NCBI GenBank assembly: GCA_965115915.1
Contig: OZ220483.1
Span: 1,211,067-1,275,066 of the forward strand
DNA: 64,000 nt
Reading direction: 5' to 3'
Source: Gammaproteobacteria bacterium
GTDB taxonomy: Bacteria; Pseudomonadota; Gammaproteobacteria; Eutrophobiales; Eutrophobiaceae
A program made the translations under genes and the position numbers. Below the pieces are notes generated by a model. The model searched no databases. It saw only the letters and a program-made list of their open reading frames with translations, and was not told the origin of the DNA. Shown in pieces: positions 5,637 to 64,000 of this stretch; the stretch's first letter is position 1; each line of letters opens with the position of its first letter.

Positions 5637-6095
5637 GCATCCCCCCGCCGCAACAGTCAGCGCCCTGCGCCCCGGCTACTGCGACTCCCGGGGGGAGTGA
5701 TGGATAGCGGCATTGTGCGTGGCCACAACAATGTGACTGCAGGGGCATGGTCTCCCCCATCGCAACCGCCGTCCCCTTTCGGCTCGGCTGCTGCGTACTC
5801 CCCCTCAAAGGGGGGCGATGGATTGTGCAACGGCTCGGTGGTTTGTTGGCTGGGCGGAGGGCACCGCATACGCTCGAGGCCTTGGCTTTTGCCCCCCACC
5901 GGCGCGCCTGCGGGCTGGCGCCCTTGGCTTGCCGGCTCCCCCTCGAGGGGGGAGCGATTGATGGCGGCGTTGTGCGGGTCCACGACAGTGAAACTGTCGG
6001 GGGCGCAAGTCCCCCCGCCGCAACAGTCAGCGCCCTGCGCTATCTGCCGTGCGACTCCCGGGGGCATAATTGACAACGGCACGAGACCATACAAA
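5637..6095. repeat. degenerate GC-rich tandem repeat array, about 4 units of roughly 110-140 bp, in the carA/queF divergent intergenic region
   Basis: Identical 31-mer tccccccgccgcaacagtcagcgccctgcgc at 5640-5670 and 6010-6040. gcgactcccggggg at 5681-5694 and 6051-6064. C5/G6 palindromic cores at about 5685-5697, 5800-5815, 5938-5952 and 6055-6065, each followed by a GAT(G/T)GAT(A/G/T)GxGxxxCGGC-like segment. Confidence 0.8.
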
Positions 6096-15674: not shown

Positions 15675-15843
15675 TCCCCAAAAGTCTTGTCAACGCAATA
15701 ATCAGCACACAGCAGAAAAACCCGAAGACCGCGTTGAAGCCCAAAAAATCCGCAATGCCAAAATGCGCATGCAACTCTATCAACGCTTCCGCACAAACAC
15801 TCATAAGCAGCAGAAAACAGCCTGTCCCGCGCAGAGCTTTCAT
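15634..15843 (-). CDS. 69-aa predicted membrane protein wedged between two antiporter-like subunit genes
   Basis: C-terminal part of ORF 15634..16140 from Met at 15843: MKALRGTGCFLLLMSVCAEALIELHAHFGIADFLGFNAVFGFFCCVLIIALTRLLGSVIKRKQDYYDAR. It fills the only gap (15675-15878) between the flanking genes. No family recognised. Confidence 0.45.
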   Translation of the reverse strand: MKALRGTGCFLLLMSVCAEALIELHAHFGIADFLGFNAVFGFFCCVLIIALTRLLGSVIKRKQDYYDAR

Positions 15844-15878
15844 ACTTATCAGGCCACGCAGGTGTTCCGCTCGCATAA

Positions 15879-17333: not shown

Positions 17334-17387
17334 TACATTCCCCTATCAGGAAAATCCGCAAAGGCCGAGTAAACCAACCGCCAGACA

Positions 17388-18878
17388 TCAACCCGCATAC
17401 AGCAACTGGTGTGCAACAGCATCGGCAAACCCCTGCAAAGGCGCACTGCCCACCCCTAAAATCAGAACGGCCAGCACGAAGACAGGCAGTGACATACACA
17501 AAGCGTGTGGAACCACAATTGCCTCCGCCGAGGCGCCAGCGCTGTCCCTGGCCACCAACGCAGACCTGTCATACAAGACCTCGACCGCCTTCCATACATA
17601 AACCAGGGCCAACAACGAGCTGAACAAAATCACAGGAAGCAGAACCCATATACCTTGCTCAACGGCCGCAAAAAACAGCAACCACTTACTGATAAAACCA
17701 GCAGTCAGTGGCATGCCCACCAGTGATAACCCGAGGGTCACGAAACACGCAGCCAGCCAGGGAGAATGCCGCGCCATGCCTCGAAGGCCCCGTAGCGACG
17801 CTGTACCATGTCGATATTCGATCACCGCCACCGTCATGAACAAACCCGTCTTGGTCAATGCGTGATTGCACATGAACACAAGGGCCGCGGCCAAACCGGC
17901 AGGACTCCCCAGGCTGACTGCCAACAGCATATAACCTATCTGGGAAATGCTCGACCACGCCAGCAGATAACGGATATTGTCCTGACGCATGGCCACACAC
18001 CCCCCATAAAACATCGCACATACCGCCAATGTCATGAATATCCAGTCCATACGCATCTCCTGAAAAGAAAACTCGACGCCAAACAGGGAATACAAGAAGC
18101 GTATCAGCACATACAAAAACACTTTGGTGGTAGTGCCTGCAAAGAAAGCGGCAATCGCCGTCGGCGACTGGCCATAGGCACCCGGAAGCCAGATATGAAA
18201 CGGGAATATTGCACACTTCAGCATTATTCCCAGGGAAAAAAACGCCAGCGCCGTCTTGATTACCGAACTGTCTTTCGATGTTGCCAGCTTCGTGGCCAGA
18301 TCCGACATGTTCAGGGTCCCGGTAAGTGCATACAACAAGCCAACGGCAATCAGGATAAAACTGGCTCCAATGGTGCCATATATCAAGTATTGGTAAGCGG
18401 AAAATAATGCCCTTCGCTTTCTTCCAATACTGATCATCGCATACGAAGACAAGGACGCGATCTCGATAAAGACATACAAATTGAACACATCGCCAGTAAC
18501 CAGAACACCACTGATACCAGCCAGATTCAACAGGAAACAGGTGTAAAACAGATAGACCCGATCCTGAGCGATCTCCTTTTCAATCAAGGCGCGACCAGTA
18601 CCCAGGATCAGCGATGCCAGGGCCGTAACCAGCAACAACATCAAAACGCCCAACCGATCCACTCGAAGTTCTATGCCCAAAGGTACCGGCCACCCACCCA
18701 ATAGATGAGAAACCCTCCCCTGATCGATGACCTGGAAAAACAACATGCCGGCAATCAAAAAACCGGACAGGCTACCAACGCAGGCGAGCAACCACACCCA
18801 TCTGCCATGCCGAACAAGGACACACAGTGGCGCACAGATCAGTGGAATCATGACCTGCAAAATCGGCAACTGACTCAT
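17388..18878 (-). CDS. monovalent cation/H+ antiporter subunit D (MrpD/MnhD-like)
   Basis: 496 aa; LGGWPVPLGIELRVDRLGVLM, typical of the MnhD N-terminus, plus YVFIEIASL and MLKCAIFPFHIWLPGAY. Confidence 0.9.
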   Translation of the reverse strand: MSQLPILQVMIPLICAPLCVLVRHGRWVWLLACVGSLSGFLIAGMLFFQVIDQGRVSHLLGGWPVPLGIELRVDRLGVLMLLLVTALASLILGTGRALIEKEIAQDRVYLFYTCFLLNLAGISGVLVTGDVFNLYVFIEIASLSSYAMISIGRKRRALFSAYQYLIYGTIGASFILIAVGLLYALTGTLNMSDLATKLATSKDSSVIKTALAFFSLGIMLKCAIFPFHIWLPGAYGQSPTAIAAFFAGTTTKVFLYVLIRFLYSLFGVEFSFQEMRMDWIFMTLAVCAMFYGGCVAMRQDNIRYLLAWSSISQIGYMLLAVSLGSPAGLAAALVFMCNHALTKTGLFMTVAVIEYRHGTASLRGLRGMARHSPWLAACFVTLGLSLVGMPLTAGFISKWLLFFAAVEQGIWVLLPVILFSSLLALVYVWKAVEVLYDRSALVARDSAGASAEAIVVPHALCMSLPVFVLAVLILGVGSAPLQGFADAVAHQLLYAG

Positions 18879-25130: not shown

Positions 25131-25423
25131 CTCCCTACCGGAACGATTTTAGCGCACCTGCCCGCATCCGTCATTTTGCATTCCGCTGACCTCTTATGCT
25201 ACACTGCGCCATCTTATTCTCAGTGTGCGACTCCATGACTTTGTTGTTTGGGATCTGAAGGCTGTCGAGCACGATCCTGTCTTGGCCACACCTGCAAGTA
25301 GTAGCTGTTGACATTTTGTGCGCCGCACAACAAACTATGCAGTGGCATGCCCTGAGGCAGAACAAATGTTCCCGCGGAGGGAAAACCCGTATTTTCATAA
25401 TCAAAGAACGGGCGGAGGTAACC

Positions 25424-26719
25424 GTGACAAGACAAGAGCAAATAGCAGCACTGGAAAAAGACTGGAATCACAATCCACGTTGGAAAAACGTACGCCGTGA
25501 CTACTCAGCAGCCGATGTTGTACGTCTGCGCGGGTCTGTGCAGGAAGCATACACTGTTGCCAGTCTTGGAGCGGAAAAACTTTGGAAACTGGTCAACGAT
25601 GAAAGCTCGTATGTCAACTGCATGGGAGCCATTAGCGCCGGTCAAGCTCTGCAACAGGTGAAAGGCGGGCTCAAGGCGATCTATCTTTCCGGGTGGCAAG
25701 TTGCTGCCGATGGCAATACTTCGGAAACCATGTATCCGGATCAATCCCTGTATGCCTACAATTCTGTGCCCTCGATGGTACGACGCATGAATAACAGTTT
25801 CCGCCGTGCAGATGAAATTCAATGGGCACGGGGCAAAAGTGATATTGACTACTTTGTTCCCATCGTTGCGGACGCGGAAGCAGGGTTTGGCGGTGTGCTC
25901 AACGCCTTTGAATTGATGAAAGCGATGATCGAGGCAGGAGCCGCTGGTGTACATTTCGAGGATCAGTTGGCTTCTGTAAAGAAATGCGGACACATGGGCG
26001 GCAAAGTACTCGTGCCTACGCAGGAGGCCATTCAAAAACTGACCGCTGCCCGACTGGCTGCAGACACCATGGGGGTCCCCTCCATCGTGCTTGCACGTAC
26101 CGACGCCAACGCGGCTGGTCTGTTGACCTCTGACCACGATGAACGTGATGCGGACTTTGTCACTGGAGAACGTACTGAAGAAGGGTTCTACATAACCCGT
26201 GCCGGGCTGGATCAGGCCATTGCCCGCGGTCTGGCATATGCACCTTATGCTGATCTGCTCTGGTGTGAAACTGCAGTACCAGACCTTGATGAGGCAAAGC
26301 GCTTTGCTGAAGCCATACGAAAAGAGTTCCCCGAACAATTACTGGCCTACAATTGCTCCCCATCGTTCAACTGGAAGAAAAATCTCGATGACGTCACCAT
26401 TGGTCGCTTCCAGCGCGAACTCGGTGCCATGGGCTATAAATACCAGTTCATCACCCTCGCCGGGATCCATAGTATGTGGTACAACATGTTTGATCTGAGC
26501 CTGGACTATATGCAACGAGGCATGTCCGCTTATGTTGAAAAGGTGCAGGAACCGGAATTCGCCGCTGCTGGAAAAGGCTATACTTTCTCCAGTCATCAAC
26601 AGGAGGTTGGTGCTGGCTACTTCGACGATGTCACCACGGTGATCCAGGGCGGAACATCATCGGTGACAGCACTCACAGGTTCAACAGAAGAAGCACAGTT
26701 TGCCACCAACAGTGGCTAG
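25424..26719 (+). CDS. aceA: isocitrate lyase
   Basis: ORF 25316..26719. The likely start is GTG at 25424, preceded by GGAGG (ggcGGAGGtaaccGTG), giving [13 protein letters not shown]. Catalytic KKCGHMGGK motif. About 431 aa. Confidence 0.94.
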
Positions 26720-41855: not shown

Positions 41856-42015
41856 TAGCTATGATGCACCCCGTACTACACAGTTATCTTCGCTGAGGCT
41901 GTTTGCCCACTGCTTGAACTCATGATCATACTGCGGGTCGAAACAGTGCATACTATCAACCTCAAGGCCCCCGACCGCCATCCGTATGGGACGGGCCGAT
42001 GTTACAATATACGCG

Positions 42016-43686
42016 ATGGAAAAGACCAGATTGTCGACAGCAGTTTACATGGTATCGCCAAAGCCGGGCATCGTGGCAATGCTGCTGGCCATTTCATGCG
42101 AAATGGCGCTTGCCGGAACCTATGCGTTGGAGATCGGGCAAACCCCCGTTCAGTTCAGCGACGGTACCAGACAGGCACTGACCATCAACGGCACCCTGCC
42201 AGCCCCCACGCTGCGTTTCAGGGAGGGAGAGGAGCTGATAATCCGGGTCAGCAATACACTGGATGAATTGAGTTCGATCCACTGGCATGGACTGATCCTG
42301 CCCTATACACAAGACGGCGTCCCGGGCTTTTCGTATACCGGCATTCAGCCCGGTGAGACATTTACGTACCGCTTCCCGGCACGGCAGGCCGGCACTTACT
42401 GGTATCACAGCCACTCGGCGATGCAGGAACAACGTGGCCTGTATGGCGCGATCATCATCGAGCCAAAGGCGCCGGATCCATTCCACTACGACCGGGAGTA
42501 TGCCGTCGTTCTGTCCGATTGGCATGACACTTGGCCAAAACGCATATTCGCCAAACTGAAACGCCAATCCGACTACTACAATTTCCATCAGCAGACCCTG
42601 TTCGATCTGCTGCACCGTCGCACCGGCGAAAGCCTTGGCAACGCGATAAAAGAACGCCTGGCATGGGGAAAGATGCGAATGATGAAAACGGACATTGCGG
42701 ATGTGTCCGGCTATGCTTATCTCATCAATGGCATGGACCCGAAACAGAACTGGACCGCGCTCTTCCAGCCAGGCGAACGCATCCGCCTTCGCCTGGTAAA
42801 TGCCTCCGCGATGAGTCTGATGGATATTTACATCCCGGGCCTCAGTATGACCGTGGTACAAGCCGATGGTAACAACATACATCCGGTGACCGTGGACGAA
42901 TTGCGCATCGCCGTGGCAGAGACTTATGATGTACTCATCGAACCGGAAAACCGTGCCTATACGCTGATGGCGGAACCCATCGGACGTACCGGATATGCCA
43001 GGGCCACGCTGACACCACACAGGGACATGTCCGCGCAAGTGCCCCCGGTACGCCCCCGTCCACAACTGACCATGGCCGACATGCCCATGTCTCCAGGGCA
43101 CGCGGGACATGCCATGCAGCACGGCGTGGACCATGCCGCAATGGGGCACGATACAGCATCCAACGACGTCCGACCGACAGACACATTTTACAGGGTCGGC
43201 AGCGGGCTGGTGCCGGTCGCATATAACGGTGGCAAATTCCTTTCCTACAGCGATCTGAAGGCGCTGCGGCCGATCTACCCGGAACGTCCGGTAGATCGGG
43301 AGCTCACGCTGCGCCTGACTGGCAACATGGAACGCTATATCTGGTCAATCAACGGCCAGACCTTCGCTGACGCGGAACCTTTGCGCTTCCGGCAAGGTGA
43401 ACGGGTACGCTTCCGCTTTATCAACGACACCATGATGATCCATCCGATGCATCTGCATGGGATGTGGATGATCCTGGACAATGGGCACGGCAGATATCGA
43501 CCCGCAAAGCACGTAATCCTGGTGGCCCCGGCCATGACCGTCACGGCAGAGGTGGAAATCGATGCGGCCGGACATTGGCCATTTCACTGTCATCTGCTCT
43601 ACCATATGCACGGAGGCATGATGCGCCGGGTGATAGTTGAACCTGCCGACCCTCAGGGACAGGAAAATCTTGCCACGCTACGCTAA
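42016..43686 (+). CDS. copA: copper-resistance multicopper oxidase CopA
   Basis: ORF 41986..43686, start uncertain (42016 or 42049). Cu sites: HWHG, YWYHSH, HPMHLHG and HCHLLYHMxxGMM. Met/His-rich insert MADMPMSPGHAGHAMQHGVDHAAMGHD. Confidence 0.92.
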   Translation: MEKTRLSTAVYMVSPKPGIVAMLLAISCEMALAGTYALEIGQTPVQFSDGTRQALTINGTLPAPTLRFREGEELIIRVSNTLDELSSIHWHGLILPYTQDGVPGFSYTGIQPGETFTYRFPARQAGTYWYHSHSAMQEQRGLYGAIIIEPKAPDPFHYDREYAVVLSDWHDTWPKRIFAKLKRQSDYYNFHQQTLFDLLHRRTGESLGNAIKERLAWGKMRMMKTDIADVSGYAYLINGMDPKQNWTALFQPGERIRLRLVNASAMSLMDIYIPGLSMTVVQADGNNIHPVTVDELRIAVAETYDVLIEPENRAYTLMAEPIGRTGYARATLTPHRDMSAQVPPVRPRPQLTMADMPMSPGHAGHAMQHGVDHAAMGHDTASNDVRPTDTFYRVGSGLVPVAYNGGKFLSYSDLKALRPIYPERPVDRELTLRLTGNMERYIWSINGQTFADAEPLRFRQGERVRFRFINDTMMIHPMHLHGMWMILDNGHGRYRPAKHVILVAPAMTVTAEVEIDAAGHWPFHCHLLYHMHGGMMRRVIVEPADPQGQENLATLR

Positions 43687-44789: not shown

Positions 44790-47700
44790 ATGATGAAACA
44801 CATACTAATGACCAACTCTTCATTGTACAGTTCCGGCGGTTTGCAGGTGCCAAATGCCAGATGGCAATATTTTCCCAATGAACACGACCCGCACAACACA
44901 AATAGTACACGCCACCACCTGAAAGCGGCACTCACCGCCGCCCTTCTGCTGCTGACACTGAGCGCTGTATTCATCCCACCGACCGCGCAGGCGCAGTCGG
45001 TGAGCAATCCGGTGAGCGATCCCATAGGGCTAACCGCCACACCAATAGGCGACGGCATCATCTTATTGCGCTGGACCACCCGTACTACTCGTGCTTATGT
45101 GCAGTACAAGTTTGGCAGTAACGACTATGATCCAAACGCACTACTCGGAGGCATCGTCGAGTTGAGAGATGGCAGTAACGTTCCCGGGACCTACTTGGAT
45201 GGACTGACAAACGGCGTGGAACACACGTTCCGTGTGGCACTCCTCCTCCCCATGAGAATCGGTATCCACACAAGGACTGTCCACCACGAGGTCACCGCGA
45301 CACCAATGGCGCCCGGCGTCACGGTCTCGGGCTCCCCGCTGACGGTGTCCGAAGGCGACCCCACAGGTAGCACATACACCGTGGTGCTCACTACACGAGG
45401 AACCTCCTGGAATGGCGGGGTGCCACAACCAGCCGATGTCACCGTCAGCGTGGCCGGGTTCGCGGGCACAGCGGTGACAGTCAGCCCGGCGACACTGACC
45501 TTCGCCGCCAACGCCTGGGACACGGCACAGACCGTGACCGTCACAGCCAGGCAAGACGCCAACACCATGGACGAGCGCGTGACACTGACGCACAGCGCGA
45601 GCGGCGCCACCGGCTACACGTCCGCGCTGTCCATTGCCAATGTGGCGGTAACGGTGGCCGACTCCACCCCGACGCTGACACTGGCCACAGACCCGTCTGC
45701 GGTGACCGAGGGCAACAACATCAGTCTGACGCTCAGTTCGGACAAAAATGTGACCGGGACGCTGCGGGTACGGCTGACGCTGTCTGACCGTGACACAAGC
45801 GGCTTCGGCGCGACAGACATCCCGGGCGCGCTGACGCAGACGCTGACTACGAGTGATTTTGGCGGAGGCACGACAGCGACGGTGTCGATCCCGACGCGTG
45901 ACGATAGCATCGTGGAAGGGACAGAGAGCTATCGCATCACGCTGAATGCCGGCACCGGCTATGTGGTGGGTGGCGATGCGGATGCGGATGGCACGTTGAA
46001 CGACAACGACAGTGCGCAGGTGACACTGGGCAGCACGACCATTAACGTGACCGAGGGTCAGTCGTTGACAGTACCAGTGACGATGAGCAGCGCGGCGGAC
46101 ACGGTGGTCAACGGTAAGGTAACGCTGAGCGGTGGAACGCCGACAGATGATTTTGCCGCGGTGGAGGCGAGTTTCCGTATCGCGGTGGGTCAGATGCATG
46201 CGAACGCGGTCTTCATGCCGAAGAGCGCGACCACCGGCGATGGCAGCTACCAGGCGGTGCGCAGTTACACCGCGACGGTGACGCTGGAGACCCCGCCGAC
46301 CGGGGTCACGGTGGGCGGCGACAACACCGACACGGTGCGGGTCAACGACAACACCCCCGGTTCCGACCCGGGCGTGACGCTGAGCCGTTCCTCGCTGCCA
46401 GTGAATGAGGGCGCGAACGGGAACTACACGGTGCGGCTTAATACCCAGCCGAGTGCGGCGGTGATGGTGACGGTGGCCGGGTTCTCGGGTACGTCGGTGA
46501 TGGCCAATCCGGCGACCCTGAGTTTTACCACCGATACCTGGAACATGGCACAGACGGTGACGGTGACGGCGGCGGCGGATGACGATAGCGAAAACGAGAG
46601 CGTGACACTGACACACACGGCGAGCAGCAGCGACAACAACTACAACGGGGCGGTGATCAACAGCGTCACGGTAATGGTGACAGACAGCGACACGCCGGGG
46701 GTAACGCTGAGCGAGACCCGACTGGCACTGCGTGAGGGTGGCACTGCCGGCAGTTACACGGTGGTGCTGAACAGTAAACCGAGCGCCGAGGTGACGGTGA
46801 CAGTGGCCGGGTTCTCGGGTACGTCGGTGATGGCCAATCCGGCGACCCTGAGCTTTGCCGCCAACGTCTGGGACACGGCGCAGACGGTGATGGTGACGGC
46901 CGGGCAAGATGTCGACACCATGGACGAAAACGTGACATTGACACACAGCGCGAGCGGCGCCACCGGCTACGGGTCTGCGCTCAACATCGCCGAGGTGGCG
47001 GTGCGGGTCAGCGACGACGACCGCCCGGCAGGGGTCAGTTTGAGCGTGGCCACACTGACGGTGGACGAGGGCGGCACCGGCAACTACACGGTGCGGCTCA
47101 ATACCCAGCCGAGCGCGACGGTAACGGTGACGGTAGCCGGGTTCGCGGGCAGCGATGTGACGGTCAGCCCGGCGACCCTGAGTTTTGCCACCACCGGCTG
47201 GGACACGGTGCAGACGGTGACGGTGACGGCCGGGCAGGACGCTGACATCACGGACGACAGCGTGACACTGACACACAGCGCGAGCGGCGCCACCGGCTAC
47301 ACGTCCGCGCTCAGCATTGCCGATGTGGCAGTCACGGTAACAGACGATGACGCGGACGGGCCAAGCGAGGATCAGCGCCGGCGCCAGGCCGAACAGCAGA
47401 TCCTGGCCCGGGTCGCCGACACCCTGCTGGCTGGCAGTGTCACCATCATCTCCAGCCGCATCGATGCGACCAATAGCGATGCACCACCCGCCACCACACT
47501 GCGCCTCGGCGGACAATCCAGCCTGCACGCGGCGCTGCAAACCCTGCAAACGGCCTCGCAGAGCGGCACACTGCAACCGGCACAACTGCTAGGGCAATCC
47601 GCTTTCGTGCTGCCACTGGCAGCCGCCGGCGGCAGTGGCACAGCACTGGAAAGTCTGGCCCTGTGGGGCAGCGGCGACTACCGCCAACTTTCCGGCAAGT

Positions 47701-48773
47701 TGCAGAATCCCAATGACCCGGATACCACACTGGATTGGGAGGGCAGTGTCACCAGCGCCTGGATCGGCGCCGACCTGCGACCGCACCGCCAGTGGCTGAC
47801 CGGTTTGGCCTTGTCCTGGTCCCAGGCACCGTTCAGCACCGGGCAGGCCAACCTCAACCAGGACAGCCACCTGTTCGGGGTGCACCCTTATCTGAGTTGG
47901 AACACCGCCAACGGCCGTGGCCAATTGTGGCTCAGTGCGGGCTATGGCTGGGGCGAACTGCGCCCCGAGAAGGACATACCTGATGCACGACGTGACAGCC
48001 ACATGGCATCGGTCGCACTCGGGGGTAACGCCACACTGCTCAGCAGCAACCGGCTGCTGCACGGCGGCAACAGCCAACTGCGCATCAAGGCGCAGGGCGC
48101 ACTGGCCGAGTTCGATGTCGATGGCAACGCCACTAGCCGTGCGCTGAGCGTCATTGCCCGGCAGTTGCGCCTCGCGCTGGAAGGACAGCATCAACACACG
48201 CTGTCCAGCGGGGCCCGGCTCAGCCCCTCGGTGGAACTCGCACTGCGCCATGAACATAACGATGCCACCGAAGGCAGCGGCATGGAAGTCGGCGGCGCGT
48301 TGCGCTATGTCAACCCGGCACTGGGCCTGACCCTGGAAAGCCGCGGCTGGGTGCTCGCCACCCACCGTGACGAAGACCGCAGGGAATGGGGTGTCAGCGG
48401 CCTGCTGTCCATCGACCCGGGTACCGACCAGCGCGGGCTTGCACTCAGCCTGGCCCCGCGGCACGGCCCGGCCCAGCGCACAGACCTCGACCGCCTGCTT
48501 GACCCGGGTACCACACCGACCGCCAACCCGGCGGCACCGGGGCAACTGGGCCTGGAAGCCGAGTTGGGCTACGGCTATGGGCTGGCCGAACGCCGCGGCG
48601 TGCTGGTGCCCTTTGTCGGTACCACGCTGGATGGGACACGCCATGCCTACCGATTCGGCAGCCGGCTGCAATTCGGCCCCGGGCTCAGCCTGAACCTGGA
48701 AGGGCAGCGGGAAGAACCGGAACAACAGCCGATACGCCACAACATCCTGCTGCACGGCACATTGCACTGGTAG
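44790..48773 (+). CDS. large autotransporter outer-membrane protein with a Calx-beta/Ig-like repeat passenger
   Basis: 1327 aa. It has a long N-region and a hydrophobic signal (AALTAALLLLTLSAVFIPPTAQA). Next come an FN3-like segment, four copies of a roughly 110-aa module (PGVTLS..EGG..YTVxLNTQPSAxVTVTVAGF..PATLSF..W.TAQTVTVTA..D.D..VTLTHSAS) and two Calx-beta-like units (DDSIVEGTESY). The protein ends with a C-terminal beta-barrel, about aa 950-1327, terminating in ..LHGTLHW. Confidence 0.85.
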   Translation: MMKHILMTNSSLYSSGGLQVPNARWQYFPNEHDPHNTNSTRHHLKAALTAALLLLTLSAVFIPPTAQAQSVSNPVSDPIGLTATPIGDGIILLRWTTRTTRAYVQYKFGSNDYDPNALLGGIVELRDGSNVPGTYLDGLTNGVEHTFRVALLLPMRIGIHTRTVHHEVTATPMAPGVTVSGSPLTVSEGDPTGSTYTVVLTTRGTSWNGGVPQPADVTVSVAGFAGTAVTVSPATLTFAANAWDTAQTVTVTARQDANTMDERVTLTHSASGATGYTSALSIANVAVTVADSTPTLTLATDPSAVTEGNNISLTLSSDKNVTGTLRVRLTLSDRDTSGFGATDIPGALTQTLTTSDFGGGTTATVSIPTRDDSIVEGTESYRITLNAGTGYVVGGDADADGTLNDNDSAQVTLGSTTINVTEGQSLTVPVTMSSAADTVVNGKVTLSGGTPTDDFAAVEASFRIAVGQMHANAVFMPKSATTGDGSYQAVRSYTATVTLETPPTGVTVGGDNTDTVRVNDNTPGSDPGVTLSRSSLPVNEGANGNYTVRLNTQPSAAVMVTVAGFSGTSVMANPATLSFTTDTWNMAQTVTVTAAADDDSENESVTLTHTASSSDNNYNGAVINSVTVMVTDSDTPGVTLSETRLALREGGTAGSYTVVLNSKPSAEVTVTVAGFSGTSVMANPATLSFAANVWDTAQTVMVTAGQDVDTMDENVTLTHSASGATGYGSALNIAEVAVRVSDDDRPAGVSLSVATLTVDEGGTGNYTVRLNTQPSATVTVTVAGFAGSDVTVSPATLSFATTGWDTVQTVTVTAGQDADITDDSVTLTHSASGATGYTSALSIADVAVTVTDDDADGPSEDQRRRQAEQQILARVADTLLAGSVTIISSRIDATNSDAPPATTLRLGGQSSLHAALQTLQTASQSGTLQPAQLLGQSAFVLPLAAAGGSGTALESLALWGSGDYRQLSGKLQNPNDPDTTLDWEGSVTSAWIGADLRPHRQWLTGLALSWSQAPFSTGQANLNQDSHLFGVHPYLSWNTANGRGQLWLSAGYGWGELRPEKDIPDARRDSHMASVALGGNATLLSSNRLLHGGNSQLRIKAQGALAEFDVDGNATSRALSVIARQLRLALEGQHQHTLSSGARLSPSVELALRHEHNDATEGSGMEVGGALRYVNPALGLTLESRGWVLATHRDEDRREWGVSGLLSIDPGTDQRGLALSLAPRHGPAQRTDLDRLLDPGTTPTANPAAPGQLGLEAELGYGYGLAERRGVLVPFVGTTLDGTRHAYRFGSRLQFGPGLSLNLEGQREEPEQQPIRHNILLHGTLHW
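46368..47348 (+). repeat. three tandem ~330-bp intragenic repeat modules of the autotransporter; a fourth related copy lies at 45312-45662
   Basis: Long near-identical DNA runs. For example, gtggccgggttctcgggtacgtcggtgatggccaatccggcgaccctgag occurs at about 46473 and about 46803. cacagcgcgagcggcgccaccggctacacgtccgcgct occurs at about 45591 and about 47274. Confidence 0.85.
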
Positions 48774-54793: not shown

Positions 54794-55852
<1,059 letters not shown>

Positions 55853-55909
55853 TCAATAGCCAGGAAACCCGGTCAAGCTGGTAGCATTCCGAAATCCGAT
55901 AGACCGGTA

Positions 55910-56266
55910 TCAGTCCAGGGCTTGCCTTGCCTTGGCGGCGAGCAAAGCAAAAGCGGGCTTGTCAGATACTGCAATATCCGCCAGTATCTTCCGATCCATT
56001 TCGATAGATGCCTTTTTCAACCCGTTAATCAATCGACTATAGGACAGTCCATGGACACGGGCAGCGGCATTGATACGCACAATCCATAGCGCACGAAACT
56101 GGCGCTTGCGTTGTCTACGGTCCCGGTAAGCATACTGCCCTGCCTTGATAACAGCCTGCTTGGCAACACGAAACACATTTTTCCTCCGGCCACGGTAACC
56201 CTTGGCCTGGGCAATAATCTTTTTGTGTCTGGCATGTGCAACGACACCGCGTTTTATTCTGGGCAT
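55910..56266 (-). CDS. rplT: 50S ribosomal protein L20
   Basis: 118 aa; [39 protein letters not shown]. Confidence 0.98.
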
Positions 56267-56327
56267 ACCACTGACTCCTCGTGCTCGCTACTTTCTATTC
56301 ATACCCTGTACTGATGAAACACCTGGC

Positions 56328-56525
56328 TCACAGATATGGCACCATTCTGGCGACCAGTCGTTGGTCCTGGGCGGCCACCTCCTGCATACCACGCAACTGG
56401 CGCTTCCGCTTGCTACTCTTTTTGGTCAGTATATGGTTGCGGTGCGACTGGCGATGGCGAAACTTCCCTGACGCCGTGCGTGAGAAACGCTTGGCCGCGC
56501 CTCGATTGGTCTTCATCTTTGGCAT
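56328..56525 (-). CDS. rpmI: 50S ribosomal protein L35
   Basis: True start [14 protein letters not shown] at 56525 inside ORF 56328..56588; 65 aa. Confidence 0.96.
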
Positions 56526-56679
56526 TTTTCTCTCCAGATTGATGGATTGCAACCAGTCACAAAAACCGTGCAATCCGCCCAGTACCACAAAACCGGTTAC
56601 GCGATATAAAAATACCTGGGACAGGCCATGAACAAGTCACTGTCTCCAGGGAAATACACGGCAATTCCCTGGCCATTTG

Positions 56680-57195
56680 CTATTTCTTGGGGGTCAGGAC
56701 CATCACCATCTGCCTGCCTTCCAGTTTGGGAAACTGCTCAACCACACCATGTGCAAGCAAGTCTTCCTGAATACGTTCCAGCATCTTCAGACCCAACTCC
56801 TGATGCATCATCTCGCGTCCACGAAAACACAATGTCACCTTGGTCTTGTTGCCGCTACTCAGGAACCGGATCAAATTCCTCAGTTTTATCCGATAGTCAC
56901 CTTCGTCGGTTCCGGGTCTGAACTTTATCTCCTTTACATGAAATTGTTTCTGCTTGCGCTTGGCAGCGTGACGCTTCTTGCTTTGTTCGAACTGATACTT
57001 GCCATAATCCATCAATCTGCAAACCGGTGGCTCGGAATCCGGCGCGATCTCCACCAGATCAAGCTCCGACTCGTCAGCATATCTCTGTGCCTCCTCCACA
57101 GGCATTATCCCTACTTGCTTGCCCTGCACACCTATCAATCGCACTGTTTGCGAATCAATATCCTCATTAAGGCGCAACTGCCTATCTACGGTAAT
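56680..57195 (-). CDS. infC: translation initiation factor IF-3, with a non-canonical AUU start
   Basis: The ORF track opens at TTG 57177. Six in-frame codons upstream lies ATT (57195-57193), preceded by GGGAGGA with a 7-nt spacer (tGGGAGGAtggacacATTaccgtagataggcagttg). This gives [13 protein letters not shown].., matching the conserved AUU-initiated infC. Confidence 0.9.
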
Positions 57196-57250
57196 GTGTC
57201 CATCCTCCCATATTCATATATCAATCTATCCTCCGTCAGGAAATATCATG

Positions 57251-59161
57251 TCAAAAACCCGGCACCTCAAACTGCTTATGCGACCGGGAAAGAAACTGTT
57301 CCAGGCTCATTGCTCCCAAATCATCGCCTTCACGGCTACGCACCGCAACCAAGGCTTCCTTCTCTTCACGGGGCCCCACTATCAGCAGGTAAGGTACACG
57401 CTGCATGCTGTGCTCACGGATTTTAAGTCCAATCGTTTCATTTCTCAAGTCTGACAAGACACGCAAGCCCCGAGAATCCAAGGCCGCTTTTATCTGGCCG
57501 GCATAAGCTGCCTGCTTTCCCGTGATCGAAAGCACGACTATCTGCACCGGACTCAGCCATCCCGGCAGACTACCTGCAAAATGTTCCAGCAATATACCGA
57601 TAAAACGCTCCAGTGAACCCAGGATGGCACGATGCAGCATAACTGGTGTTTGCCTGCTACTGTTTTCATCAACATATGTGGCCCCCAGCTTGGCCGGCAT
57701 GGAAAAATCCACCTGTATCGTCCCACACTGCCAGACCCTGCCTATACAGTCCCGCAGGGAAAATTCGATCTTCGGCCCGTAGAAAGCCCCTTCCCCAGGC
57801 TGCAATCGCCAATCCATCTCCCTGGATTCCAGTGCCTGACGCAGTGCCTCCTCCGCCTTGTCCCAAACCGCATCCTCACCCACGCGCTGTTCGGGACGGG
57901 TGGAGAGGCTGACCAGCACTTCATCAAAACCAAAATCCGCATAGGCCGCATACAGCATATCAATAAACGTGGCCACTTCTGACTGGATTTGCGCTTCAGT
58001 GCAAAATATGTGGGCATCGTCCTGGGTAAAATGACGCGCCCGCATCAACCCATGCAGCGCCCCCGAAAGCTCATTCCGATGACAGGAACCAAACTCCGCC
58101 AGCCGTAGCGGAAGATCGCGGTAACTCTTCAAACCCTGATTGAAAATTTCCACATGGCAGGGACAGTTCATCGGCTTGATGGCATAAGATCGGTTTTCCG
58201 ACTGTGTGATAAACATGTCATCCTGAAATTTATCCCAATGTCCGGAACGCTCCCACAGGGAGCGATCCACCAGTTGCGGAGTACAAACTTCCTGATATCC
58301 GCCACGCAACATCAACCGGCGTATATAGGATTTGACAACAGAATACAGTGTCCAGCCTCGGGGGTGCCAAAATACCATGCCTGGTGACACCTCCTGAAAA
58401 TGAAACAGATCGAGCTTTCCCGCCAGTTTTCGATGATCGCGCTTTTCCGCCTCCGCCAGACGCTCCAACCAATCGCCCAGAGACTTTTGATCTGGCCATG
58501 CGGTACCGTATATTCGCTGTAGTCTCTCATTACGCGCATCACCTCGCCAATAGGCGGCAGCCAACTTGGTCAACTTGAATGCCCGCAACCTGCCCGTACT
58601 CGGGACATGCGGCCCCCGACACAGATCAGTAAAATCACCCTGGCTATATAGTGAAAGCGGCTCTCCTTCTGGAATGGACTCAATGATCCGCGCCTTGAAC
58701 TCCTCACCCTGATCCCGGAAAAAATCGATCGCATCGTCACGTGACATCTCCGACCGGGAAACCGGGATGTCCTGGGCGACCAGTTCCCTCATGCGTTCCT
58801 CTATGCTGGCAAGATCCTCCATGGTAAAGGGACGGTGATAGGCATAATCATAATAAAATCCATCACTGATGACCGGGCCTATGGTAACCTGCGCCTGCGG
58901 ATAAAGCTGCTTCACCGCCTGTGCCATAAGATGCGCACAGGAATGACGAATAAGTTCAAGGCCCTCCGGGTCACGATCCGTGATGATGCGCAAGCTGGCA
59001 TCGGTGGAAACCACAAAACTGGCATCAACCAGTTTGCCATCGACCTCTCCCGCAAGAGTCGCCCTGGCAAGGCCATCACCGATATCCCGAGCGATATCCA
59101 TGATGCTGAGTGCCTGCGTATAGTCCCTGCTATTGCCATCAGGGAGCGTGATCACGGGCAT
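57251..59161 (-). CDS. thrS: threonine--tRNA ligase
   Basis: 636 aa; [10 protein letters not shown]-type TGS domain, editing-domain HSCAH motif, class II core, and an anticodon-binding C-terminus. Confidence 0.98.
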
Positions 59162-59574: not shown

Positions 59575-60441
59575 TCAGTTATCCAGGGCCTTGGTACTGA
59601 CCAGGCTCAAACTCTCCTCCATCAATGGGGTATTATCGGAGTCGGAGACGATCAGGGTCCGGATACTGTAAAGACCGCCAGGAATGTGTTCGGAAAGGAT
59701 AATCTCGTACAGCTTGCCGGAATATTTCTCGAAACGGCTCCGGTAAGGGTCATCGACATAGGGATTGAAACTTATCTTGCTGGCAGGCACCGTCTCTCCG
59801 GCAAATTCCACCATGACCGGCTCCACGGTAGTGGCTTCCCGCAAGGCCATCTTGATCCGCTTATGGAAATGCCGCCAGTTGCCTTTGGTCAACCGACTCA
59901 TTTCGTACACATCACCCTGAAAGTAAATGCCGAGTACTGGATTGCCCATGATGTCGGTAACATTAGCGGGGTTTACCTGCTGCTTCCGACTGCCCGTGAA
60001 AAAATCCAGCCGGGCAGTCTTGGTGCCATCATCATTGAGTTGATATACGCTGAGATACACGGCATCGGAAAACCCCTCTTCTACCGTGCCGGTCTTGACA
60101 AACTCATAATACAGTTGCGTGGGTTGAACAATATTCTGCAGATGATCGGACAACCATAACAACTCTTCCGCCTGACTGAATTGGAACCCTTCCGGGATCT
60201 CCTCGACTTCGCCCATGGCCCCGATATGGGCCTGGATCTGCTCCTCGGACAACGGCACTCCACCAGAATGCTTTGTTTCCCCATCAGTACCCTGCGCCGC
60301 CTCTTCCTGCGAAAGCGCCGGTCCGCCGAACCCGATGCAGAACACACAGGCCAGTAAAATGCAGCGCCACGCGAATCGGAACCCGGTCCTCTGCCGACTG
60401 CCAACCTCCACCTGAACCGGCAATAGTCTAGTCATCATCAT
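59575..60441 (-). CDS. secreted hypothetical protein, last gene of the pseudoazurin-xoxJ transcription unit
   Basis: 288 aa; N-terminal hydrophobic signal (WRCILLACVFCIGFGGPALS) and an acidic linker, with no Cys in the mature part. No family recognised. Its start overlaps the xoxJ stop by 14 nt. Confidence 0.7.
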   Translation of the reverse strand: MMMTRLLPVQVEVGSRQRTGFRFAWRCILLACVFCIGFGGPALSQEEAAQGTDGETKHSGGVPLSEEQIQAHIGAMGEVEEIPEGFQFSQAEELLWLSDHLQNIVQPTQLYYEFVKTGTVEEGFSDAVYLSVYQLNDDGTKTARLDFFTGSRKQQVNPANVTDIMGNPVLGIYFQGDVYEMSRLTKGNWRHFHKRIKMALREATTVEPVMVEFAGETVPASKISFNPYVDDPYRSRFEKYSGKLYEIILSEHIPGGLYSIRTLIVSDSDNTPLMEESLSLVSTKALDN

Positions 60442-61321
60442 CCTGCCTGATCGTCTTCCTCAGTGGCACCATGGGGATATTGTACTGCGCAAGTATCTTG
60501 TGAATCTTGTCACGGTTTTTCTCTATCAGCTCATTGATTACCTGCTTCCATTGTTCCTCCCCGTGACGCACTGCCATGGAAAGATTGTAGGAGAAAATCA
60601 TCTGACGGTTTGTCTTGACATCATCTTCCAGCGGCAATATCACCAATTCCTGCTGGTCCCGATACTGCTGGGCATAATAGCCGGCAAATGGCCCCCAAAC
60701 CACTGCCATGTCCAATTTTCCATCCATAATGTCCTTGAGCATGACATACGCAGGGCTCTTTTTTACGTCGCCCGTATGGCCCTGGTAAGGCACCACGAAA
60801 CCCATCATGTCCTGGTAAAAAACCCACAGTTGCCCCGGGCCACGATCCGTCGCACCGATACGCGGCGCAAGCTGCTTGCGCGACACCAGCTCACTCAACT
60901 GTTCGGCATCCTTCAACTCATCGTAGCCCCTGCCCCTGGCATAAACCAGCACCCAGGTCGAGGCATAATAAGGGATCGTGGTGGAAGCCAATTCAAATCC
61001 GTCCGGAACCGTGATCACAAGATCACATTTATATCCTGTACCCTCCTCCAACTGGGCACGCAGGGTATTGCGTATGAAGCCCATACGCTGCGGGAAAAAA
61101 CTGTACTGCACCTCCATGCCGAGTTCCTGCCCGAACAGTTCGGCTATCTTGTTCTCATACCCTTGTTTCCCGATATTGGAAAACGGCAACATGTGGGGGT
61201 CCGCACAGACTTTGAGTGACGCCGGCTGCTCAGCCTGTGCCCCAACCGCGAAAAGCAGCAGCAAAGGCAGATACCACAGGCAGGCAATCAGGCGCCTCAT
61301 ACAACAACCCAGTCCGTTCAT
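60428..61321 (-). CDS. xoxJ: MxaJ/XoxJ-family periplasmic binding-protein-like protein (quinoprotein dehydrogenase-associated)
   Basis: 297 aa; signal peptide, LKVCADPxxLPFSN and GYENKIAELF, typical of MoxJ/XoxJ (PBP type 2 fold). ATGA overlap with the upstream pseudoazurin stop. Confidence 0.85.
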   Translation of the reverse strand: MNGLGCCMRRLIACLWYLPLLLLFAVGAQAEQPASLKVCADPHMLPFSNIGKQGYENKIAELFGQELGMEVQYSFFPQRMGFIRNTLRAQLEEGTGYKCDLVITVPDGFELASTTIPYYASTWVLVYARGRGYDELKDAEQLSELVSRKQLAPRIGATDRGPGQLWVFYQDMMGFVVPYQGHTGDVKKSPAYVMLKDIMDGKLDMAVVWGPFAGYYAQQYRDQQELVILPLEDDVKTNRQMIFSYNLSMAVRHGEEQWKQVINELIEKNRDKIHKILAQYNIPMVPLRKTIRQDDDD

Positions 61322-61758
61322 GCTGTCGGTTTCAGCTTATTGATCTTGCCAAGCAAACGCCGATATGGCCCCTTCAATACCTCCATGGCCTTCTGCTTAT
61401 ACGCGGCGATAGTATCGGCCGATATGTCGCCGACCACAATCAGGCCAACCATGCCAAAACCAATATGTGGGACACAAACGTACGCATAGATGCCCGGCAT
61501 CTCGAGATTCACGACAATGTCCTCTCCCATCTTCCCGCTCCAGTGTTCCGCTCCTTCCGGGATCAGCCCTTCAACCGATACTGCATTGTGCGATACCATC
61601 TTGGTGAACTTGACGCTATCCCCCGGTGCCGTATAAATGATGGCAGGTTCGAACGCACGGGCAGACGCCTTGATGATGTGCGAATCAGCGGTGGCTGTCG
61701 ACAAGGAAGCCAATACCATGGTCGTAGCGAACAAAATATTGCTTACAATTTTCATCAT
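61318..61758 (-). CDS. pseudoazurin (type 1 blue copper protein)
   Basis: ORF 61318..61773, probable start MMKIVSN at 61758. Colinear with Paracoccus/Alcaligenes pseudoazurins: FEPA..PGD.V.F....SHN....G.IPEG.E...PGIY.Y.CxPHxxxGMVGLIVVGD. His, Cys, His and Met ligands are all present. Confidence 0.88.
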   Translation of the reverse strand: MMKIVSNILFATTMVLASLSTATADSHIIKASARAFEPAIIYTAPGDSVKFTKMVSHNAVSVEGLIPEGAEHWSGKMGEDIVVNLEMPGIYAYVCVPHIGFGMVGLIVVGDISADTIAAYKQKAMEVLKGPYRRLLGKINKLKPTA

Positions 61759-61926
61759 TCCAAAACACTCCAAAAAATATTGCGAAATCCAACGCCTTCA
61801 AGCTTTTGATGATACCACAACCACCCTGGCACAGTAGCCTGGACTATCCCAGGCGGCTTGTTTGACCAATAACACCATCCTGGCATCAACAAAACAGATA
61901 CGAAGCACCGAGGGGAAACCACACAC

Positions 61927-61960
61927 AAAAAAACCGGCACCTGAAAAAACAGGTGCCGGT
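61927..61960 (-). terminator. rho-independent terminator downstream of xoxF
   Basis: Minus strand: ACCGGCACCTG-TTTTTT-CAGGTGCCGGT followed by TTTTTTT. A perfect 11-bp GC-rich stem, about 50 nt after the xoxF stop. Confidence 0.8.
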
Positions 61961-62010
61961 TCTGTACTACCTTCCGCGAGGAAAAACTCCCGCGATACTT
62001 CCCCGGCCTG

Positions 62011-63960
62011 TTACGGCAGGCTGAACACCATCAGAATGCCTGCATTCCGAGATGAGTTCAGCAACTTGCGATAGCCACCGACCGCACCCAGCGCAGCCGC
62101 ATCAGGCGCTGCCGCAAGGCCTTCGATGGACACTACCGCACCAGCCCAACCACCAATACCGGAAAGCACACCGACATACTGCTTGCCCTTGTGCATCCAG
62201 GAATGGAAATTGCCGATGATGCCGGACGGTGCCTTGAACTTCCACAGCAACTTGCCATTTCTGGCATCTACCGCCTTGGCATAGGCATCCAGAGTGCCGT
62301 AGAAAACAACGTCACCCTCAGTGCTGAGGACACCGGACCATACCGACCACTGTTCCGGGATCGACCAGACGATCTTGCCCTTGTCGGCATCCCAGGCAAT
62401 CATGTTGCCCATATTGTCCTTGTCCGCATTGTTGTTCGGACATTCCGGGCATACGGCACCGGCAGGATACATGGTCAGATTGGCATTGACATAGGCCTGG
62501 CCAGCAACATATTCGTTGCCACCCGCGGCATACGACACCGGCTCATAGGTCATGCACACATGGTTGGTAGGCACATAGAACAGCCCGGTACGCGGGCTAT
62601 AGGCAGCAGGCTGCTGGTCCTTGGTGCCCAACGCGGCAGGACAAATGTCCTTCGAAACGACATCCTCACCATTGTAGTGTGTGCTGTACTTGTTGACCGT
62701 CTGCGGATAACCGGTCTTCATGTCAACATGGGTCGCCCAGTTGACCGCCGGGTCGAATTTTTCAGCGACCAGCAGTTCACCGCTAATGCGATCCATGGTG
62801 TAGGCAAAACCATTCCGGTCAAAATGCACCAGAGCCTTGCGCATTTTTCCCTTGACCTTCATATCCACCAGGATCATCTCGTTGACACCATCATAGTCCC
62901 ACTCATCGTGAGGGGTCATCTGATAAGCCCAGCGAGCCATGCCGGTATCAATGTCACGGGCAAACATGGTCATTGACCATTTATTATCACCCGGACGGAC
63001 CACAGGGTTCCAAGTAGACGGATTACCCGAACCATAGTACAGCAGGTTCTCCTTGAAGTCCGCAGGCCACCAGCCCCAGGTCGAACCGCCGCCAGTCCTC
63101 CAGGCGTCGCTCAGGCCCTTACATGAGTTGGGAGCGGTCGCAGGTGCTTTCCAATCACTGTTCGAACACCAAGTCTTCAACGAAGAATCTTTCCCCACCG
63201 GCTTGCCCAGTGAAGTGGTTTTCTTCGGATCAAACAGGATGTCATCGTCAGGACCCATGCTGAAGGCACGCCAAGCCAATTTCCCACTCTTGGCATGGTA
63301 CGCAGCGAGCCAGCAACGGACACCGAACTCGGCACCGGAACAACCGGTAATCACCTTGTCCTTCATCGGATGCGGTGCATTCGTCGCAGTGTTCCCGGAA
63401 GCCGGGCCACCACCACCACGGCCGGGCACATCACGGCCATTTTCCGCACTCCACATCACCTTGCCCGTCTTGGCATCCAACGCAATCAGCGTGGTATCCG
63501 CCTGCTGCAGATAAATCTGACCCATGCTGTAACCCAGACCCCGGTTCACTATGTCGCAACACATGACCGGAACAGTCTCTTCCTCATCCTGCTGGGGTTC
63601 GTGGTACCACGTAATCTCCAGCGTATCCAAGTTGATTGCAAAAACATCGTTGGGAAAGGACGAATGGATATACAGCGTGTCATTCGGAAGACCCGTAGCA
63701 CTTGAGGGGAGTACCAGAGGGCCACCCTCATGCCCTTGCAACCGACCGGTGGAAAAGGTCCACGCCGTAATCAGGTCTTTGGCATTCCGGTTGTTGATCT
63801 GATTCAGCTTTGTGTGACGCCAATTCCAGTAGTTGCCGCCCGGGAAAGCCCAGTAATTCGGGTTTTCCGTCAGCTTCTGCACTTCTTTGTTTGCCAAAGC
63901 TGGGGCAGAAAGCCCTAATGCCAATATGGCACAGAGCCATTTCTTTACAGATATATTCAT
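62011..63960 (-). CDS. xoxF: PQQ-dependent methanol/alcohol dehydrogenase, XoxF (lanthanide) type
   Basis: ORF 62011..63987. Start [23 protein letters not shown] at 63960, preceded by GAGGAGG. Vicinal Cys pair [21 protein letters not shown] carries the extra Asp (DYD) diagnostic of Ln-dependent XoxF, against DYA in MxaF. Confidence 0.9.
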
Positions 63961-64000
63961 GATTATGATTCCTCCTCGTTTAATCATCGACGTGATTAAC

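Follow-up and report, generated by a model that had tools for sequence, protein, structure and literature searches.

The electron acceptors proposed or shown for XoxF, the lanthanide-dependent methanol dehydrogenase that carries pyrroloquinoline quinone (PQQ), are in the literature we found all c-type cytochromes (XoxG1–4; PMC5874918). These four types are unrelated to each other, which shows that the partner of XoxF was swapped repeatedly (PMC5874918). In the canonical xoxF-xoxG-xoxJ operons of Sinorhizobium meliloti and of alpha- and betaproteobacterial methylotrophs, the cytochrome gene lies between xoxF and xoxJ. The S. meliloti megaplasmid record (labelled pSymA) lists a divergent SoxYZ-like carrier and, a few genes on, xoxF, which is followed by a "c-type cytochrome, methanol metabolism-related" (xoxG), a substrate-binding protein (xoxJ), and a "PQQ-dependent catabolism-associated CXXCW motif protein". 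The xoxF gene of gammaproteobacterial methanotrophs has no cytochrome gene nearby, and their XoxG4 is encoded at a distance from it (PMC5874918). Here, we describe a xoxF locus in a 64,000-nucleotide stretch of DNA from a Gammaproteobacteria bacterium of the family Eutrophobiaceae (assembly GCA_965115915.1, contig OZ220483.1, positions 1,211,067 to 1,275,066 of the forward strand; hereafter, the window), in which a gene for a pseudoazurin, a small copper protein of the cupredoxin type, occupies the slot of xoxG.

The right-hand end of the window carries four genes in tandem on the minus strand: xoxF, the pseudoazurin gene (paz), a xoxJ-type gene, and an open reading frame (ORF) designated ORF4 (Table 1). 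The first-pass annotation of this DNA had proposed that a pseudoazurin stands in the position of XoxG, and the features on which it drew were all recovered where it had placed them, on the minus strand. The gene between xoxF and xoxJ encodes a pseudoazurin that lacks the haem-binding motif CxxCH and carries the sequence pattern FEPA..PGD..SHN..PEG..CVPHIGFGMVG that had been quoted for it, and the S. meliloti order of xoxF, c-type cytochrome, xoxJ, and CXXCW protein matches the order in the window slot for slot. The signal peptide ascribed to the pseudoazurin was seen by inspection; it is of the Sec type (...LSTATA/DSH), which points to periplasmic targeting. The stop codon of paz overlaps the start codon of xoxJ in the sequence ATGA, as had also been noted, and the possible start codons of ORF4 overlap the end of xoxJ by 8–14 nt. 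The locus has in common with the canonical operon an XoxF5-type enzyme (55% identical by tblastn), a xoxJ gene two genes downstream, a divergent SoxYZ-like carrier upstream, and products that are all periplasmic. It differs in that a pseudoazurin replaces the c-type cytochrome between xoxF and xoxJ, and in that ORF4, which is unrelated to the CXXCW-motif protein, follows xoxJ. The first-pass annotation did not cover ORF4, a hairpin located 3' of xoxF, or the recurrence of the cassette across loci.

The adjacency of these genes is conserved and is not unique to this genome. A homology search with the pseudoazurin yielded 293 relatives, many of them 146 aa long, and a profile of the paz family, run against a single genome of each prokaryotic species, gave 80 loci, all from uncultured Gammaproteobacteria. 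In 68 of the 80 loci, paz is followed by xoxJ on the same strand, and ORF4 comes next in 66 of these 68. Of the 68 cassette loci, 58 have xoxF immediately 5' of paz, nine are truncated by a contig end, and the remaining one is without xoxF. Across the loci, XoxF is 68–90% identical to that of the window. The identity of the pseudoazurin drops to 42%, whereas its type-1 copper ligands are invariant in all 81 sequences.

Two of these loci depart from the tight linkage. One, L030, is described below; in the other (L079, 5817–8000), an insertion of about 2.2 kb separates xoxF from paz, and the locus has two copies of an identical 97-aa ORF at different sites. In the metagenome-assembled genome (MAG) of Legionellales bacterium SP289, the whole cassette occurs on two contigs (L022 and L023) with near-identical flanks, reflecting either a duplication or redundancy in assembly or binning.

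A c-type cytochrome gene linked to the cassette was sought in several ways. The CxxCH motif is absent from paz, xoxJ, and ORF4. The earlier statement that no c-type cytochrome gene is visible in the locus extends to the whole window: only three ORFs of at least 70 aa contain CxxCH, at 36–49 kb, and these look like chance occurrences, which leaves the 64 kb without a credible one. Across the 80 related loci, a credible CxxCH ORF of at least 80 aa was likewise not found, to a distance of about 8–10 kb from the cassette, and no cytochrome c domain was found within 10 kb on either side in four further Pfam-annotated neighbourhoods. By tblastn (E ≤1e-3), S. meliloti XoxG, which represents one XoxG type, had no match in the window or in 86 related loci, a search that covered these loci and not whole genomes. 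The CXXCW protein of S. meliloti and the cytochrome c encoded upstream in that species likewise had no match in the window or the 86 loci. In the same search, S. meliloti XoxJ gave 75 matches, among them the xoxJ genes of the window and its relatives, and the SoxYZ-like carrier gave 41.

Only 13 bases of the window lie beyond the 5' end of xoxF, and the upstream side was therefore read from relatives. The closest of these, L086, shares the context from thrS to pheT, and the C-terminal part of its XoxF is 92% identical to that of the window. On the 5' side of its xoxF lie genes for a pyridoxal phosphate (PLP)-dependent Cys/Met enzyme, ligA, and zipA. A xoxG-like gene upstream of xoxF or within the operon, the possibility that the first-pass annotation had left to be checked, was thus found neither in the window nor in L086, the other annotated neighbourhoods, or the 80 loci. 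The conserved adjacency and the lack of a linked cytochrome together support, by comparative genomics, the cupredoxin-based electron exit from XoxF that had been put forward. In the methanotrophs of the Methylomonas sp. LW13 type, which likewise are Gammaproteobacteria with an XoxF5-type enzyme, no cytochrome gene adjoins xoxF, and the proven haem acceptor XoxG4 is encoded elsewhere (PMC5874918). In the present locus, by contrast, a cupredoxin gene is inserted and the dehydrogenase has extra loops. In this class, then, a xoxF without an adjoining xoxG is not in itself unusual, whereas the inserted cupredoxin is.

Several genes of L086 between 1300 and 8069 are split, namely xoxF (221 + 437 aa), ligA (809 + 172 aa), and the gene for the Cys/Met PLP enzyme (145 + 243 aa). 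The splits represent either frameshift errors of long-read sequencing or gene decay in a small genome.

The setting of the cassette varies. It is usually flanked on one side by kdtA, a gene for a small secreted protein with four Cys residues (h129), and the divergent SoxYZ-like carrier (220 bits on TIGR04557, cut-off 140), and on the other side by fdsAB-like formate dehydrogenase genes and fhcCDA of the tetrahydromethanopterin (H4MPT) pathway. In one small genome, the cassette adjoins pqqBCDE. Unlike in most relatives, the cassette of the window and of L086 lies beside thrS-infC-rpmI-rplT-pheST (window 54794–59161, minus strand; L086 11030–17875). The presence of the four-gene cassette in two different settings indicates that its genes moved together, an argument for a functional unit over a merely inherited gene order.

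Two of the flanking genes can be characterized further. A fused SoxY-SoxZ protein is encoded divergently from xoxF in L081 (6333–7172, minus strand) and in 36 other loci; judged by its family match, it is the quinoprotein dehydrogenase-associated SoxYZ-like carrier (TIGR04557) and not the product of a sulfur-oxidation gene. The h129 protein (about 129 aa, secreted, no known family) is encoded between kdtA and the SoxYZ-like carrier in 42 loci, for example at 5906–6295 of L081 and at 7239–7622 of L084. It was considered as a candidate cytochrome and rejected, since its four Cys residues form no CxxCH motif.

In 12 of the loci (L019–L021, L028, L031, L035, L036, L038, L040, and L042–L044; e.g., L038 7848–8366), a solo paralogue of 172–249 aa is encoded among speA, an M20 peptidase gene, a hexapeptide transferase gene, speE, gidA, and gidB. 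In a rough neighbour-joining tree, the solo paralogues nest inside the cassette clade, and five MAGs carry both types. These results suggest that the lineage uses pseudoazurins generally and keeps a dedicated copy for XoxF. As a possible case of the general pseudoazurin family linked to xoxF, the pseudoazurin gene on a plasmid of Ensifer canadensis (L087) was also inspected and was rejected, as no xoxF-sized ORF lies within 12 kb of it; linkage to xoxF is thus not a trait of the pseudoazurin family at large.

The assignment of the paz product is based on both its sequence and its predicted fold. It matches PF00127 at 1e-12 and pseudoazurins in the PDB down to 3e-24. On the pseudoazurin equivalog model TIGR02375, it scores 94.1 bits, under the cut-off of 109.85, and its homologue P0064 scores 80.8 bits; this score below the cut-off suggests a divergent branch of the pseudoazurin family. 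On the amicyanin model TIGR02657, a homologue of the pseudoazurin of the window scores only 21 bits. The ORF (61318–61773) is longer than the gene called in the protein database and reaches a TTG at 61773. The type-1 copper ligands are H57, C95, H98, and M103 (precursor numbering), with the spacing C-x2-H-x4-M, and nearly all family members have a Val just before the Cys ligand. The AlphaFold2 model (predicted local distance difference test score, pLDDT, 91) shows a beta-sandwich followed by two C-terminal helices at 114–127 and 130–140. Two C-terminal alpha-helices packed on the beta-sandwich set pseudoazurin apart from plastocyanin and amicyanin. The 27 best fold matches of the model in the PDB are all pseudoazurins (template modelling score, TM, 0.73–0.79 over 122–128 columns), and plastocyanins come next in the ranking (TM 0.61–0.71 over about 100 columns). 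Among the structural matches is 1PMY, a pseudoazurin of Methylorubrum extorquens AM1 that was reportedly studied with methylamine dehydrogenase and so offers a further precedent for a cupredoxin paired with a quinoprotein dehydrogenase.

The surface of the pseudoazurin was compared with that of nitrite reductase donors. According to mutagenesis work by Kukimoto et al. in 1995, pseudoazurins that serve as such donors reportedly use a ring of surface lysines, K38, K57, and K77 (A. cycloclastes numbering), which encircles the hydrophobic patch. In an alignment to 9M62, the window protein has V, S, and V at the positions that we take to correspond to these lysines. Its charge pattern consists of an acidic core and a basic C-terminal helix, and nothing else stood out.

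The dehydrogenase itself belongs to the PQQ methanol/ethanol dehydrogenase family of eight-bladed propellers, as judged by a score of 625 bits on TIGR03075 (cut-off 480) and a match to PF01011. Its closest solved structures are the lanthanide-dependent XoxF enzymes 6DAM (Methylomicrobium buryatense, 772 bits) and 6OC5 (Methylorubrum extorquens, 746 bits), to which it is 61–63% identical, with 61% for 6DAM, the closest, which is a methanotroph enzyme. The scores against MxaF and XoxF2 (4MAE) are at most 522 bits, and those against ethanol dehydrogenases of the ExaA/PedH type are at most 267 bits. In this enzyme group, an extra Asp two residues past the catalytic Asp (D-x-D) is a lanthanide ligand and is replaced by Ala in MxaF. 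The corresponding sequence is WDYDG at residues 363–367 of the window XoxF; it is identical in 6DAM and is WDFDG in 6OC5. The vicinal Cys-Cys pair over the PQQ is present at residues 143–144 in the sequence VPVMCCD, as in 6DAM and 6OC5. The relatives align from residue 8 of the 658-aa ORF, and translation may therefore in fact begin with the Met in position 10.

By match scores and alignment, the dehydrogenases of these loci are assigned to an XoxF5-like subclade with conserved extra loops. Relative to 6DAM and 6OC5, the extra loops lie at residues 94–101, about 185–193, 274–291, and 487–491, and include the sequence LPxSATGL following GGPLV, the sequence AAGGN, and a loop of 18–40 residues after SSLKTW. 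Two Cys residues bracket the 274–291 loop (C...C at 274–289), and a VCP[DE]CPNNN motif (VCPECPNNN in the window) is shared by those members that form the window's own subclade. Each extra loop is present in at least 47 of the 48 clade members, except for the variable first part of the 185–193 loop. The absence of these loops from the XoxF5 enzymes that use cytochromes is consistent with a changed docking surface.

For the xoxJ-type protein, the score on TIGR03871 (MoxJ_2, quinoprotein-dehydrogenase-associated) is 236 bits, above the cut-off of 212, and the score on TIGR03870 (MoxJ proper) is 90 bits, below the cut-off of 258. For ORF4, no Pfam or NCBIfam family was found, and all 198 of its homologues are annotated as hypothetical. 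Its AlphaFold2 model (pLDDT 84.6) shows a domain of a sheet plus helices with a weak likeness to the open, lipid-binding beta-barrel of LolA/LprG (TM 0.2–0.37). ORF4 was considered as a hidden redox partner and was rejected, because it has no family, a weakly LolA/LprG-like fold, and a mature part without Cys, the last of which indicates that it is not a redox carrier.

Immediately 3' of xoxF lies a hairpin with a GC-rich 14-bp stem that includes 8 GC pairs, followed by TTTGTGTGTG. A hairpin of the form CCCCGG...CCGGGG with a T-run (-10 kcal/mol or lower) is found 3' of xoxF in 55 of 57 related loci. It probably acts in one of two ways, either as an attenuator that sets a high ratio of xoxF to the partner genes or as the boundary of a separate paz-xoxJ-ORF4 transcription unit.

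Table 1. Genes and features of the xox cassette at the right-hand end of the window.
Feature	Position in window	Strand	Description
xoxF	62011..63987	-	Periplasmic lanthanide/PQQ methanol dehydrogenase, XoxF5-like by match scores, with clade-specific insertions; 658-aa ORF
Hairpin with T-run, resembling an intrinsic terminator	61920..61963 (hairpin 61963-61930)	-	Immediately 3' of xoxF
paz	61318..61758	-	Secreted cupredoxin of the pseudoazurin type; 146 aa as called in the protein database
xoxJ-type periplasmic binding protein gene	60428..61321	-	MoxJ_2 family
ORF4	59575..60441	-	Conserved secreted protein without known family; slot of the CXXCW-motif protein in Sinorhizobium

Amicyanin is encoded within the mau cluster, that of methylamine dehydrogenase. 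Passages of PMC12723479 describe that enzyme as a periplasmic C1 quinoprotein with a small type-1 copper acceptor. The system at hand is similar in this respect; it differs in having PQQ and a lanthanide in place of tryptophan tryptophylquinone (TTQ), and in being a predicted partnership, whereas that with amicyanin is experimentally proven. The type II quinohaemoprotein alcohol dehydrogenase is a PQQ enzyme that likewise has a cupredoxin, azurin, as its natural acceptor (PMC8348568). Its electrons exit via its own fused haem c domain, whereas XoxF has none, so that a cupredoxin would have to take electrons directly from the PQQ site. In addition, a cupredoxin-like family, PF23509 ("MSMEG_3727, PQQ-associated"), is named for its association with PQQ enzymes; it matches P0064 weakly (25 bits, E 1e-5, under the cut-off of 27) and scores 12.8 bits on the window protein.

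Taken with these precedents of azurin and amicyanin (in the passages of PMC8348568 and PMC12723479 concerned), the exact positional replacement of xoxG, the linkage that was kept when the sequences diverged and the cassette was relocated, the periplasmic protein with its intact type-1 copper site, and the changed loops of XoxF lead us to favour, with moderate confidence, the reading that the pseudoazurin is the dedicated direct electron acceptor of this XoxF clade, replacing XoxG. Typical pseudoazurin potentials are about +230 to +280 mV, near that of cytochrome cL at about +250 mV. In the proposed mechanism, XoxF with its lanthanide and PQQ would oxidise methanol to formaldehyde in the periplasm, and Cu(II)-pseudoazurin, which may dock via the patch around its exposed His ligand H98, would re-oxidise the reduced PQQ by taking one electron in each of two steps. 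The reduced pseudoazurin would then deliver its electron to the membrane, either to an oxidase or to a bound cytochrome. In most relatives, formaldehyde and formate would proceed to the H4MPT-linked Fhc complex and the NAD-type formate dehydrogenase encoded beside the cassette. XoxJ and ORF4 are predicted to be accessory periplasmic proteins made in step with pseudoazurin, and the conserved hairpin after xoxF would yield much more dehydrogenase than partner proteins. We thus infer the passage of electrons from XoxF to pseudoazurin, the nature of the downstream acceptor, and a swap of haem for copper as an iron-sparing marine adaptation. A further-reaching version, in which the pseudoazurin is the sole physiological acceptor of XoxF in marine methylotrophs of the UBA4486 type, the periplasmic leg is haem-free and copper-based, the extra loops are a docking adaptation, and the swap spares iron, is put forward tentatively, as somewhat less probable than not.

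Several points weigh against direct acceptance. The role of the pseudoazurin is deduced from gene context. All loci belong to one broad gammaproteobacterial lineage with shared flanks, and the conservation may therefore partly be simple inheritance. Global isoelectric points and net charges revealed no clear charge complementarity between XoxF and pseudoazurin, and one locus (L030, 1–8000) contains paz-xoxJ-ORF4 with no xoxF within 8 kb and with a DDE transposase gene close by. The strong conserved hairpin between xoxF and paz means that paz-xoxJ-ORF4 may be a separate transcription unit. In addition, because XoxG4 is encoded away from xoxF in gammaproteobacterial methanotrophs, a xoxG missing from the neighbourhood is not necessarily missing from the genome. 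An unlinked XoxG-type cytochrome might be encoded elsewhere in the genomes with the cassette, and the pseudoazurin would then be a second carrier, receiving electrons from XoxF via this cytochrome and passing them to the oxidase, in the place that cytochrome cH has in the classical chain. The hairpin that parts paz from xoxF fits such a relay, as do the methanotroph origin of 6DAM and the observation that the XoxG4 gene of methanotrophs is not only distant from xoxF but also not co-regulated with it (PMC5874918). Moreover, in bacteroids of Sinorhizobium sp. NGR234, a pseudoazurin gene located four genes from a PQQ alcohol dehydrogenase gene is co-induced with it, with cytochromes also present (PMC3732241). 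Several observations speak against a relay: the pseudoazurin gene is exactly in the xoxG slot, no cytochrome gene was found in the 86 related loci or in the window, and this XoxF clade has surface loops of its own. A dedicated paralogue beside xoxF is also difficult to account for when these genomes already have a solo pseudoazurin for general use. On balance, the relay is considered unlikely.

The translational coupling of paz to xoxJ and ORF4, and not to xoxF, would also suit a role of the three products as factors for the maturation or maintenance of XoxF, in which the pseudoazurin might keep the vicinal Cys-Cys or the clade-specific Cys pairs in their proper redox state, or might reactivate the enzyme. 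The hairpin suggests a lower, accessory level of expression for these genes, and the XoxF clade has extra Cys pairs (the C...C loop at 274–289 and VCPECP) on which such a factor could act. To our knowledge, however, a type-1 copper site in a pseudoazurin fold is known solely as an electron shuttle, and the cytochrome gene xoxG precedes xoxJ in canonical operons, so that coupling to xoxJ is normal for an acceptor gene; a maturation role is accordingly rated improbable. Still less credit is given to a function in an unrelated process, such as the handling of copper or the supply of electrons to nitrite reductase or nitrous-oxide reductase, with the position between xoxF and xoxJ as an accident of the lineage. 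Passages of PMC3732241 and PMC12848317 present pseudoazurins as best known for donating electrons to denitrification enzymes, the NGR234 protein was taken by its authors as a nitrite reductase donor (PMC3732241), and the restriction of all loci to one lineage with conserved flanks would allow for such an accident. These points are countered by the linkage, which outlasts both the relocation of the cassette and divergence to 42% identity, by the solo paralogue in its housekeeping context, which would serve general duties, and by the absence of denitrification genes from five Pfam-annotated neighbourhoods. The lysines for docking to nitrite reductase, at the positions considered above, are also not conserved in the window protein, and this last option is thus very improbable. 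Direct electron acceptance from XoxF by the pseudoazurin remains the reading that we prefer.

A full-text literature search returned no functional link of a pseudoazurin or other cupredoxin to xoxF, lanthanides, or PQQ; the nearest case in the literature is the remark on the NGR234 pseudoazurin (PMC3732241). In a broader search, xoxF did not occur in any of the 30 top-ranked papers. These results suggest that, whereas the xox methanol-oxidation module is known, the exchange of its cytochrome partner for a cupredoxin is new. Some of the carriers are named as members of the order UBA4486 or as Candidatus Eutrophobiaceae, and others are sponge-associated and groundwater MAGs. "Candidatus Methylospongiales", considered as the source lineage, was rejected because it is alphaproteobacterial. 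Passages of PMC12542740, PMC12120059, and PMC8371827 describe UBA4486 as putative facultative or dissimilatory methylotrophs. According to parts of these papers, UBA4486 xoxF5 transcripts occur in globally distributed seawater samples (PMC12542740), the xoxF transcript level of UBA4486 exceeds that of Methylophilaceae in Guaymas Basin plumes (PMC12120059), and, as stated among the three, UBA4486 dehydrogenases of the methanol/ethanol family are abundant in North Sea metaproteomes. The transcription in seawater (in the parts of PMC12542740 and PMC12120059 concerned) provides a context for the predicted lanthanide-dependent methanol oxidation. A term search of the main-text portions of PMC12542740, PMC12120059, and PMC8371827 gave no mention of azurin or xoxG.

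The carriers include a widespread, environmentally important, and uncultured marine lineage that is reported to transcribe xoxF actively in seawater and hydrothermal plumes. If the pseudoazurin is indeed the acceptor, it would represent a new class of redox partner for lanthanide enzymes and would tie marine lanthanide-dependent methanol oxidation to the supply of copper, not of iron. It would also offer a small, easily expressed, and spectroscopically convenient partner for an XoxF clade that has never been purified. The xoxF-paz-xoxJ-ORF4 unit can serve as a metagenomic marker of these methylotrophs, and ORF4 is flagged as a system-specific, uncharacterised component.

Most of the other annotated genes in the window are housekeeping genes (carAB, gltX, leuC, Mrp antiporter genes, prc, clpA, ilvD, glmS, and thrS-infC-rpmI-rplT-pheST). 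About 18 kb from the xox cassette, the window encodes a three-domain multicopper oxidase of 566 aa (41986–43686, plus strand), which adds another copper protein to the periplasm of an organism with a small genome. A gene of the isocitrate lyase family (25316–26719, plus strand) may bear on carbon assimilation in this putative methylotroph. An ORF of 1327 aa (44790–48773, plus strand), for which nothing was found other than a weak fibronectin type III match, spans the GC-richest part of the window, with a GC fraction of 0.65 at 46–48 kb versus about 0.54 elsewhere. Finally, three large genes for Mrp/NuoLMN-type antiporter subunits lie in a row (13992–18878, minus strand), and the AT skew is 0.24–0.30 across this stretch and much lower in the remaining window.

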